DNA of 64,000 bases from Camelus dromedarius (lineage: Eukaryota): assembly GCF_036321535.1 (NCBI RefSeq), contig NC_087436.1, positions 46,440,001-46,504,000 on the forward strand, read 5' to 3'. The translations under genes were made by a program, and so were the position numbers. Of the stretch, positions 24,011 to 47,367 are shown one piece after another (within the stretch, counting starts at the first letter, position 1; the number at the start of each line of letters is the position of its first letter). A model generated the notes under the pieces. The model was not told the origin of the DNA. It saw nothing but the letters and a program-made list of their open reading frames with translations, and ran no database searches.

Positions 24011-26210
24011 AAAATGGACTCTTAAGGAAGAGGTACCATATTTATTATTGTGTTTAAACGCTCCCCAGGACACTGGCATATGCCCTTGTTCAAACATTAC
24101 CCTAGTTTGAAAAAGCACAGAGTCTTAGGATATTGCCACCCAGGCCATGGGATTTTTGTTAGAATTTAGAAGAATTTGTCCAGCTGTCCTCTTTCTACTT
24201 TGCTGCATGTAAACTCCTGAAGTCTTTTTGGCTAGCTCACTAATGAATCTTTAGAATGTTTCTCTAAGCACCTAACTGGTAACATGTCCACAGTTAAGAT
24301 GATTGAGGACTATAAAATCAGCTTCCTCAAACAGAGATTTTCTGTTTGAGAAAAAAGATCTATCTGAGATGAGCATTACCTACCCACTTCTCTCCTTAGG
24401 TCTCATTAACACTGGAAGCCAAACTAAATTCTTAAACTTCATGGGGTTTTTTGGATGTGTATGTGAGCATTCAGAAGGTATGATCAAACAGCAAGCTGGT
24501 CATGCTCAGATATGAGTACGAGAAGTGACTTATTTATACATGCAAATTGCAAAACTTTTGTAAGGCCTGCCATGTGTGCTGTTAAAAGGTTTTTACTTTT
24601 AAATGATTTTTGTTAGATAATCCTGTTTCAAGTGACACTGATTTATCGCCACTAATCAAGATTCTGATCCCTCATAGACTTCTTGTTTGTATCTGTTTTT
24701 GTTCTTTGTTACATAAATATGAGGTTTATATATAAAATTCTGACTGTGTAATATAGGGCTAATGAGTCACAGATGGAAAGATGCTGGCACATCACCATCT
24801 AATAACATTTTAAACTCATATTCCATAGTAAAACAAAAGCAAATTGTACACATCTGTTTTCCAACTTGCAGCGTTTCTGAATTGGTGGAGAGTCAATGTT
24901 TAAGGCACTTTTGCTTGGGGAGAAGAAAAAGAGGGTACAGGTCACCTCAAAACTGTCCGGCCTCTTCATAGCCTTATCAGAAAGGATTTGGCAAAAGGGT
25001 TGAGATTCCCTCAGCTTTGCCTCCTGAGAAGTCCCAGCTCTAAAGAACAAGAGTCAAAGGCATTGTGGCTGAAGAGGTGCCTCCAACTACAAACATAATT
25101 TTCTTGGCTCTCTTAAAAAGAAAAATATATCCCTAATAAGGGGCAAAAAGGGAGAAAAATACACTAGAACTAATAAAATTTAAAGACAAGAAAATTTCTG
25201 GCTTTTTCTAAATATATCCTCAAAATTTGAGAGGGAAAGGGGGAAGGAAAGCGAGGAGGAGAAAACACAGGAGGGAAGCCTGCAGACACTCGAGGTCATG
25301 TATTGCTGTGGTTGCTATTTGGTTTTTTGTACGGTAAACGTATTCAGTTTGGGAAAAAAATGGGAAGAAAAGGCTCTGATAATCACACGTTGTTGGAAAA
25401 GAAAGAACACAGGCAAAATTTCTCTCTCTGACCCACGCGATTGATAATGCCTGTGGGGATGAGTTAGTACAAGCTGGGGAAGTACCATCTCTCCCCTTTT
25501 CTCCTCGGTGAGGAAATTCTAAACCACTTTTCTGCTTCAAGGGGGTGTGTGAACTGTCAAGTTCTTTCAGAAAAGTTACGTGACACAAGTGATTACTGCA
25601 GAGTATGACCATAAATCCCTCTGACATGGAATCCGCATGTTATAAGAGACAGGTTTCCATCTGCCACCTCTGCAGGAATTCCTGAAACAGGAAAGACCTG
25701 AGAATCATCACATGATTGGAGAGAGAAATTTTGATGTGTGGGTGGTAAAATTCTATTTTATGAGGCATACTGCATTTCTTCTGAGGAATACGTCTGATCT
25801 GACTGCAAAATTCTGTTCACTGTTGTCCAGAAAAAGATTTAACACATGTATTGTATGTCCTGAGTCGTAAACAGAATCTGAAGAGAGGGAAATTACAGTG
25901 TTGTGTTTATAACAGAGTCTGCAGTTATCTCCATTTTGTACTAACATTTTGTTTGTAAGAGTCCAGAAATCTTAAGGGTCTATGCATGGAGCCCGATGTA
26001 CCTGAGTTCTCGGCCTGATCATTCCCTAAAAGGAATGCGTTTGGCTTGGGGGCTTCATGCGTCTGGTTTTGTTTAGGGTGTGTCAAACGAGGCAGGACTT
26101 AGAGCCGGGATGGGGTGGCATTAGGTACATGCTTGTTTTGTTTGTCCGCCAGTGGAATGTCTGTGTGACGTTTTGTGTCGTGTTGTTTTGGTGCTGTGCT
26201 GTGTCCATAG

Positions 26211-26270
26211 GGTCTGCCAGGCTTCCCCACAGTTGCTGCTCTGCACAGTAATCAGATCCTCACCGTCAAG
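26211..26270 (+). CDS. COL25A1: Probable alternative COL25A1 exon (60 nt, GLPGFPTVAALHSNQILTVK), NC2 variant A
   Basis: CATAG acceptor after a UG-rich tract; AAG|GTTTGT donor; phase 0/0 with no stop; begins with Gly-X-Y (GLP GFP); similar to the COL13A1 NC2 segment AALRSSQIIALK as recalled. Confidence 0.8.
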
Positions 26271-27024
26271 GTTTGTGGTTGGCACCCATGCCCGCTCGGT
26301 CCGAGCCCGCAATCAGCATAAGAGTGAGCAAGAATAGCCAAATTGGCTTGCAGAGTCCAGTCACTCCCTTTCCTCACGCAGAACATCAGGCTATTGGGCA
26401 CTTAGGACCTTAGCTACATGGATGAGGTCAAATGCATATTAAGAAGAAGAATCCTGAGCATATTAAGAGAGGAGGATGTTGAAGTCAAGCAGGAGCAATG
26501 AGGTACGGCGGGCAAGCTCTCTAGGACTGTGCCACGCCGTGGTGGCTTAATTGGCATGCATGGTAGTGCTCTGTGATATTTTTCAGTCGATTAAGTAATC
26601 CTAAGTACTCTGGAATTCAGCATCAATAAAATGGCCATGGCGTTCGTGCCCTATTATGCTGGTTGACGAGCTGACGGAAATTGAACTGGCGCTTTGTCTC
26701 TGGACTTTCTGCTCAGAGTGCAGGAGGCGGGTGATGCAAGGTTACCTGCTTCTTTAATACATGGCACTAAAAAGGCCCAACACCCACAGCAAAAAAGATT
26801 CATTTCTAACTAAAAATCTGGTTCCACCTTCCCGTTTCAAGGTTTGTATTCCTTTCAAGAAGAGCCAGAGGGTCTGATGTCAGACACAAGTGCCAGTTCT
26901 GTTTTGTTTGATGGTTATTACAAGTCTAATGTGTATCTTTATTTCTTTCTTGGGGCCTTCTGATGCCTATTCTTCAACTCTCTCATCTCTGAACTCCAAC
27001 CTTTGACCTCACCTGACTGATCAG

Positions 27025-27096
27025 ATGGTGTTTCCTAAAATCAATCATGGGTTTCTCTCTGCTGATCAGCAGCTCATTAAACGCCGCCTGATTAAG
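27025..27096 (+). CDS. COL25A1: COL25A1 NC2 exon (72 nt, MVFPKINHGFLSADQQLIKRRLIK)
   Basis: CTGATCAG acceptor, AAG|GTAGTG donor, translation matches collagen XXV NC2 as recalled. Confidence 0.96.
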
Positions 27097-27838
27097 GTAG
27101 TGCTTATTCTTGCTCGAGTCTGATTTCTCCTTTGCATTCAATTTTTACTCTGTATACTGTTGCTTTGCCATTTACCTCTCATGGGGAGGGATGGGGTGTG
27201 GGCAGTGGGCATTTATCTTAAAATATCCTAGAGCAAAATTATGTCTAATGAGCTGCAACTGTTTGAAATATATATGAAAATATCAAAATCAATAGGTAGA
27301 GAAAGCCTATCTAATTTTTTCTTAAACAAACCAAAAACAAAAAAAAAGCTTTAAAGTTATATCCAGTGATAGATCCAGTCTCTAAGCTCTCTAGCTTCGG
27401 TAATTTATAAATTATTACGCAGCATGACAAGAGCCTTGTATGCTTAATTTTATAGGTTATGAAAAAGTAAATATTTGTCCGACTATAAATGCAGCCACTT
27501 TACTAAGCAAGATGAATATAACTGATGCAGCATTGTCATGGATAAAGTTATGCAAAAGTTTTCTACCAGCTCTGAGTGTGATGATAACACACACACTGTT
27601 TCCAAGAGCTGGTTTCTGAGCGGCTTTGATTTTAACAGCGTCTGCCCCGCTCACCAGCATGAATATTTATTTGCTCCCCGCTGGCAAGCAAATTGCCTAC
27701 AGCCTTTACGTTTCTGGTTGTTCTGGTTCTTTTCATCGTGTAAATGTGGATTAGATAATACAGTTTAAAGTGCTGGAAAGAAGACCTGGGTCTTTACCTT
27801 TCATGGTTATTGTTGGTCTGTCCCCTCCTCCACTGTAG

Positions 27839-27946
27839 GGCGACCAAGGACAGGCGGGGCCCCCAGGCCCTCCAGGCCCTCCAGGCCCTAGAGGGCCTCC
27901 TGGGGACACAGGGAAGGACGGCCCCCGCGGAATGCCAGGAGTGCCT
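27839..27946 (+). CDS. COL25A1: COL25A1 collagenous exon (108 nt, [36 protein letters not shown])
   Basis: Pyrimidine tract plus CTGTAG acceptor, CCT|GTGAGT donor, 12 perfect Gly-X-Y triplets. Confidence 0.98.
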
Positions 27947-30271: not shown

Positions 30272-30307
30272 GGTGAACCAGGGAAACCAGGAGAACAAGG
30301 CTTGATG
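30272..30307 (+). CDS. COL25A1: COL25A1 collagenous exon (36 nt, GEPGKPGEQGLM) with GC donor
   Basis: TCTTTTTTAAG acceptor, 4 Gly-X-Y triplets, donor ATG|GCAAGT. Confidence 0.95.
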
Positions 30308-45236: not shown

Positions 45237-45263
45237 GGTCCTCTGGGGCCTCCAGGACAAAAG
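45237..45263 (+). CDS. COL25A1: COL25A1 collagenous micro-exon (27 nt, GPLGPPGQK)
   Basis: TTTTCTTTTTTTAG acceptor, AAG|GTAGAG donor, 3 Gly-X-Y triplets. Confidence 0.95.
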
Positions 45264-47322: not shown

Positions 47323-47367
47323 GGTTCTATTGGAGCACCTGGAATTCCAGGGATGAATGGGCAAAAG
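47323..47367 (+). CDS. COL25A1: COL25A1 collagenous exon (45 nt, GSIGAPGIPGMNGQK)
   Basis: TCTCCTTAG acceptor, AAG|GTGAGT donor, 5 Gly-X-Y triplets. Confidence 0.97.

Follow-up and report, generated by a model that had tools for sequence, protein, structure and literature searches.

Does COL25A1 carry a second coding exon for its NC2 segment and, if so, how old is it, and does it alternate with the canonical one? Motor axons require collagen XXV to enter muscle, and the protein forms part of amyloid plaques (accessible parts of PMC7848082 and PMC7720522). The question arises in a 64,000-nt stretch of the Camelus dromedarius genome (G000:C1:46440001-46504000, hereafter the window), where a preliminary description had proposed a hidden NC2 exon, possibly exclusive with the canonical one.

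Anatomy and conservation of the optional NC2 exon

Exon A (26211..26270, plus strand), the optional NC2 exon, has 60 nt in phase 0 and encodes 20 residues with a net charge of +1 and a C-terminal L-x-S-N-Q-I motif. By inspection of the window DNA, its reading frame is open and it is bounded by an AG acceptor and a GT donor. The canonical NC2 exon, exon B (27025..27096, plus strand), has 72 nt, also in phase 0, and encodes 24 residues with a net charge of +4; its peptide is identical to human COL25A1 residues 165-188 (human sequence from the PMC8373072 supplement). Between them lies a 754-nt GT-AG intron (26271..27024, plus strand) with one TGCATG and two ACTAA as candidate motifs, and branch-point-like motifs for exon B are found at most 120 nt from B and more than 600 nt from the exon A donor. 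The coordinates, frame and peptide first proposed for the 60-nt exon were thus reproduced, as were the AAG at the end of both exons and their non-consensus donors.

A 742-nt intron separates exon B from exon C (27839..27946, plus strand, 108 nt), which opens the COL2 triple helix and serves U, A and B alike as acceptor. The upstream exon U (27 nt) lies outside the window, about 4.2 kb before its start, and the U-A intron measures 30,421 nt. Three later plus-strand exons, at 30272..30307 (36 nt, the exon after C), 45237..45263 (27 nt) and 47323..47367 (45 nt), match human COL25A1, and together with B and C they match its residues 165-260 (PMC8373072 supplement). Exon A sits in order and phase among U, B, C and these three exons, and its region is single copy in the genome. 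By exon count, exon B probably corresponds to human exon 9; the count uses the end of exon 3 at c.367, a 45-nt exon 4, two 27-nt exons, a presumed 8-nt exon 5, and the positions of the optional residues 141-146 and of NC2 (165-188) given in the accessible part of PMC2807601. To judge by the human protein and the following bases, the exon at 30272-30307 has a GC donor (GC-AG intron). In addition, the region around exon A and the A-B intron (26001-26800) has a G+C content of 0.41-0.58, compared to 0.29-0.37 in its flanks, and higher CpG counts.

To judge from sequence comparison, exon A is a real, ancient and conserved coding exon. First, a bird COL25A1 model (P0054) contains its peptide at 20/20 residues, spliced directly to exon C. 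Second, a vole model reads the exon A DNA in another frame with four differences, each with one single-base explanation, and the implied substitutions are all (4/4) at third positions and synonymous in the frame of exon A (chance 0.015, or 0.095 with transitions only, in a small sample). In the same model, 7 of 15 codons beyond the exon A donor match as well, so that the flanking DNA is conserved too. The bird peptide and the vole changes point to purifying selection on the reading frame, in keeping with the conservation of frame in orthologs that the preliminary description had asked for. Third, eight of 371 database proteins carried an A segment and three a B segment, leaving out three more motif matches in unrelated collagens. 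Poecilia, Sinocyclocheilus and elephant shark models contain homologues of A with 16-20 residues, as do two Logan proteins; the contigs of the latter (1108 and 1139 nt) extend over many exons, and for that reason we take them as spliced transcripts. Support for the splicing of exon A into dromedary mRNA comes from models of other species and from these two short contigs, whose paralog is uncertain. The ten A segments compared all have a net charge of +1 and an invariant L-x-S-N-Q-I core, with a variable N-terminal half. The two additional Gly-X-Y triplets that exon A was thought to bring to COL1 are seen in mammal, bird and shark, whereas teleosts differ and the COL13A1 counterpart has none. 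Nor is the exon hidden, as had been assumed: public models of bird, teleost and shark already contain it, in keeping with the accompanying remark that predicted isoforms might already include it.

The fish and shark proteins deserve caution. Their U and C exons score nearer to COL25/COL23 than to COL13, and a transmembrane-exon tree (13 rows) placed them on neither COL23A1 nor COL25A1. We therefore do not claim conservation of exon A to shark within COL25A1, and these homologues would date the exon within the MACIT family, not within COL25A1 itself. Seven teleost and shark MACIT proteins (P0040, P0072, P0123, P0240, P0234, P0254 and P0255; 125-309 residues) end within or shortly past NC2 or exon C, several of them on long contigs, and eight fish-like transmembrane exons group as a single clade (97/97). 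Split gene models could explain the short proteins, as could a short isoform or the fourth paralog, which Tu 2015 considered lost.

The protein searches returned no ordinary full-length mammalian COL25A1 entry. A region search with the bird model found, among 18 candidates, the bird model itself as sole match, and nearly all matches of a further protein search were unrelated collagens. Models P0022, P0054, P0005 and P0111 were predicted automatically and contain evident errors. Further along the contig, an 81-nt collagenous exon at G000:C1:46563886-46563966 shares 96% identity with a 27-residue part of the bird model. A 24-nt second NC3 exon (L033, G000:C1:46550411-46550434), which the bird model lacks, resembles exon A in its hydrophobic run at the end, directly before a Gly-Pro-Pro start.

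Paralogous genes and the age of exons A and B

The dromedary genome contains a COL13A1-like gene on C8 and a COL23A1-like gene on C27, named by likeness to human COL13A1 sequence and by source labels. The former has the same U-A-B-C order, with U' of 27 nt, A' of 57 nt, B' of 66 nt and C' of 108 nt, and the layout of the latter is U (27 nt), B (72 nt) and C (117 nt). Homology was assessed by shuffle tests (3000 each). First, COL25A1 A and COL13A1-like A' are identical at 9 of 19 residues (p=0.0003), and their donors are alike at 8 of 9 positions. A' was the best A-like match within 60 kb (score 32.2, next 25.2) and, reciprocally, A was the top match of the last 13 residues of A' in all six frames of 104 kb, that is the window plus 40 kb upstream (45, next 24). 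Second, COL25A1 B and COL13A1-like B' share 5 of 22 residues (p=0.04), without B being the top match in the 104-kb scan, and both have a net charge of +4, while COL25A1 B and COL23A1-like B are identical at 11 of 24 (p=0.0003). The exon B donor reads AG/GTAG in all three paralogs; the donor patterns, which were defined post hoc, are found 5 and 4 times over the 104 kb. Third, no exon A was found among 136 candidate exons of the COL23A1-like gene, the best scoring 8 compared to 37-46 for true A exons, and exon A appears to have been lost from this dromedary gene. Its exon B homologue (L013; minus strand, G000:C27 about 23.968 Mb) is intact, with 72 nt and a net charge of +3, and lies 1117 nt into the 3262-nt intron that follows the exon at 8586-8560 of L013. 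Canonical human COL23A1 joins the exons flanking this position directly. The three-gene comparison suggests an NC2 exon for COL23A1 as well.

According to the accessible part of Tu 2015 (PMC4678570), COL13 was the first to split and the paralogs arose before cartilaginous fish. Since A is homologous to A' of the COL13A1-like gene and COL13 split first, exon A predates the COL13/COL25 split. Exon B very probably does so as well, on the strength of its position, phase, donor and charge. Hence the proposed kinship of A with the NC2 exon that occupies its place in COL13A1 holds, whereas the wider claim that the pair predates the duplication stands for A and is marginal by sequence for B. The weak donors have been retained since a time before cartilaginous fishes diverged.

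Alternative NC2 splicing of COL13A1 has been known since 1992, reportedly from the work of Juvonen in 1992 and Peltonen in 1997 on alternative splicing of this gene, to go by the titles, and the cassette exons concerned are presumably numbers 12 and 13. Cassette exons as old as A are not rare. The alternative splicing of the COL13A1 NC2 exons is also noted in the accessible part of PMC12669723. The COL13A1 pair is similar to that of COL25A1 in its place between COL1 and COL2, order, phase 0 and sizes (57/66 compared to 60/72 nt), in the homology of A, in nearly identical donors and in charges of +1 and +4. Moreover, two human COL13A1 transcripts in a supplement drop A' and retain B', as canonical COL25A1 does. 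However, A' lacks the Gly-X-Y start, B' is strongly diverged from COL25A1 B, and with both exons skipped NC2 of COL13A1 retains residues of the upstream exon, whereas COL25A1 would fuse COL1 to COL2.

Splicing states and the question of mutual exclusion

Sorting the proteins and models by their NC2 exons gave an A-only state in P0040 (Logan contig of 1108 nt), P0072, P0123, P0240 and P0054, and a B-only state in the human canonical form, P0111 and P0005. The A+B state has a sole case, the fish protein P0254, which is one predicted RefSeq protein, and neither exon is present in the bat model P0022 and at the human exon 8-10 junction. This junction is reported for 42 human fibroblast samples in the accessible part of PMC12669723 and, exon 9 being B by count, is read as skipping of both A and B. 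All four NC2 states therefore occur somewhere among vertebrate MACIT models or transcript sets.

We compared the pair with the grounds for mutual exclusion named in the accessible part of PMC5740500: steric hindrance below 50 nt, a U2/U12 clash, frameshift followed by decay, and a competing RNA duplex. No mechanism was found by distance (754 nt, in agreement with the earlier remark that the exons are too far apart for steric exclusion), by splice-site type (GT-AG ends), by length (60 and 72, both multiples of three) or by RNA duplex. Regarding the duplex, a 23-nt stretch (26318-26340) can pair with 26964-26986 or with 27105-27115, that is with either flank of B. The pairing at the B donor was rejected as a candidate: 8 of 40 shuffles paired at least as well, a constitutive-exon control did better (0/40), and in the paralogs 17/40 and 28/40 shuffles were as good or better. 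Furthermore, A and B resemble each other at chance level in shuffle tests (p=0.30, and p=0.89 for COL13A1-like A' and B'), with an A-group to B-group score of -7.9 against -9.5 +/- 2.3 expected, and so they are not tandem duplicates. Together with the A-B joining in P0254 and the skipping of both in human fibroblasts, as far as the source is accessible, these data do not support strict either-or splicing of A and B. In short, the preliminary description correctly spotted exon A and linked it to COL13A1, whereas the exon is already in annotation and mutual exclusion is not established.

The tandem-duplicated mutually exclusive exons catalogued by Hatje 2017 and Martinez Gomez 2021 (events of the latter: 50 in COL25A1, 49 in COL13A1) are likewise adjacent, similar in size and phase, alternative versions of one region and of jawed-vertebrate age. 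In contrast to them, A and B have no mutual homology and can co-occur or both be absent. We also considered whether A and B might already be in such catalogues and rejected it for the readable COL25A1 entry, that of Martinez Gomez, which is a different pair of 26/29 residues near the C-terminus. COL25A1 is listed in at least two catalogues of mutually exclusive exons according to the accessible part of bioRxiv 10.1101/2022.06.15.495552 (section 12), and the accessible part of the DZF preprint leaves the COL25A1 pair unspecified. Hatje cluster 2215 had no sequence in the PMC5740500 supplement files examined, COL25A1 is absent from the Lam supplements, and a search of the PMC7954323 supplement gave no matches. 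The literature covered, which includes accessible parts of PMC4678414 and PMC6752227 and leaves aside most subscription papers, contains no description of COL25A1 exon A or of the three-gene comparison.

We consider it moderately probable that A and B are unrelated, frame-preserving cassettes that yield up to four NC2 states under tissue-specific control. Both exons would have been inherited from a single MACIT collagen gene predating the vertebrate genome duplications, and each, with its weak donor, would be included or skipped by tissue-specific control, so that the COL1-COL2 break would be absent, neutral (A), basic (B) or long (A+B). All four states may occur in mammalian COL25A1 itself, with regulation through ordinary RNA-binding proteins acting on weak sites. 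The candidate regulatory region at the exon A acceptor (25961..26210, plus strand) is UG-rich and pyrimidine-poor: TGTG occurs 6 times with 1.3 expected and KGGKG 6 times with 0.8 expected (8 motifs in 3 regions, uncorrected), the acceptor is 60% pyrimidine, and YTNAY is absent within 120 nt. Ordinary regulated cassette splicing, based on weak donors and this UG-rich, pyrimidine-poor acceptor, is thus the likely mechanism. An RBFOX-type GCATG cluster was rejected, its 3 occurrences in 1400 nt being equalled by 11% of windows.

An alternative to which we give nearly an even chance is that non-neuronal cells mainly use A for NC2 and neurons or muscle use B, so that A is no minor variant and the canonical sequence reflects cloning from brain. 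The accessible text of Harms 2025 (PMC12669723) describes human NM_001256074.3 (isoform 3, 645 aa) as having exclusive exons and as predominant in the 42 fibroblast samples, and the fish and shark proteins retrieved are most often A-only. However, this count of states is biased, because the search that gathered them started from a protein containing A. The exon 8-10 junction and this transcript agree with our exon A in that exon 9 (B by count) is skipped and further exons are exclusive to isoform 3; in the same accessible text, the exclusive exons are neither named nor translated, and the exon pair of COL13A1 is not linked to them. From the wording of the Fig. S3 legend, as far as that source is accessible, exon A is quite probably among the exclusive exons. 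The length arithmetic of isoform 3 (654 compared to 645 residues) was left unused, since several exon sets fit, and this weakens it as an argument for the alternative. A division between non-neuronal and other cells would be compatible both with independent cassettes and with exclusion in practice.

Exclusion in practice would mean that one regulator or cell-type programme promotes one exon of mammalian COL25A1 and represses the other, leaving A+B rare though mechanically possible. In its favour, of the ten database proteins that contain A or B only one has both, the same Fig. S3 legend (accessible part) seems to imply that one human RefSeq transcript replaces exon 9, and the stretch after A can pair upstream of B or beside its donor. 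Nevertheless we regard it as rather improbable: the exons are not duplicates, their lengths and GT-AG ends allow any combination across 754 nt, the duplex at the B donor is no better than many shuffles, P0254 joins both exons while fibroblasts, in the source as accessible, skip both, and the COL25A1 event of the tandem-duplication catalogue is the C-terminal pair. Finally, mammalian exon A could be conserved at the DNA or RNA level, as a relic or a regulatory element, and rarely be translated. This would fit its weak acceptor without a clear branch motif, its loss from the COL23A1-like paralog and the conserved flank in the vole model, but is very unlikely given the identical bird peptide, the purely synonymous vole changes, the intact COL13A1-like homologue and the apparently spliced fish contigs that include A.

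NC2 charge, ligand binding and arthropod MACIT collagens

The six B segments compared all have a net charge of +2 to +4, next to the uniform +1 of the A segments, which fits the contrast first drawn between a neutral and a basic exon. The amyloid-beta-binding motif attributed to B is on less even ground: Soderberg 2005 is reportedly its primary paper, known to us by title, whereas Osada 2005, going by its title and a citing passage in a source accessible in part, is said to assign amyloid-beta binding to COL1. The string LIKRRLIK itself had 0 occurrences in the literature searched. What stands, at second hand, is that the accessible part of PMC2807601 cites NC2 as carrying a basic amyloid-beta motif and a predicted heparin-binding property. 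The same part reports that deletion of COL25A1 residues 165-188, a study that used the B form, left trafficking normal and abolished BACE1 induction. In the reading with two cassettes, B would offer heparin-like or amyloid ligands a basic surface; A would remove that surface and keep the hinge, and its conserved C-terminal half might cap or register the start of COL2. Structure prediction for a fish protein (9 sequences) was uninformative, with a mean pLDDT of 52.6 and values below 50 over the A segment. Should A replace B in some cells, these would shed an ectodomain that lacks the basic motif of NC2, and annotation against the MANE transcript would overlook exon A variants or class them as intronic.

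Short segments at the same kind of break were also seen in arthropods. Among the Tetranychus MACIT (CG42342-like) proteins examined, segment 1 was present in 5 of 6 and segment 2 in 1 of 6, and for 15 of the 19 members of a Glossina cluster, 12 had both segments, one had segment 1 only and two had no match. Each mite segment has a matching counterpart in the fly (p=0.0002 for each). Their resemblance to A is weak (p 0.008-0.14 in 8 tests, uncorrected), and they show no likeness to B (p 0.34-0.66). Like A and B, these cassettes form a pair of short segments where the helix first breaks, each with hydrophobic residues and Lys at its end, before Gly; they differ in that neither resembles B, the likeness to A is weak, and the exon borders are deduced from isoform comparison. 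A bolder reading, which we hold to be improbable, is that the MACIT two-cassette break has existed since the bilaterian ancestor, that A and the arthropod segments share common descent, and that the mammalian choice between A and B toggles a ligand site deciding amyloid-beta, heparan sulfate or axon-receptor binding. If it were true, most published binding work would concern the B form, and fibroblast-type cells would make the A form. In isoforms P0161, P0374 and P0283 of Tetranychus and P0185 and P0382 of Glossina, the two conserved short segments are swapped or stacked.
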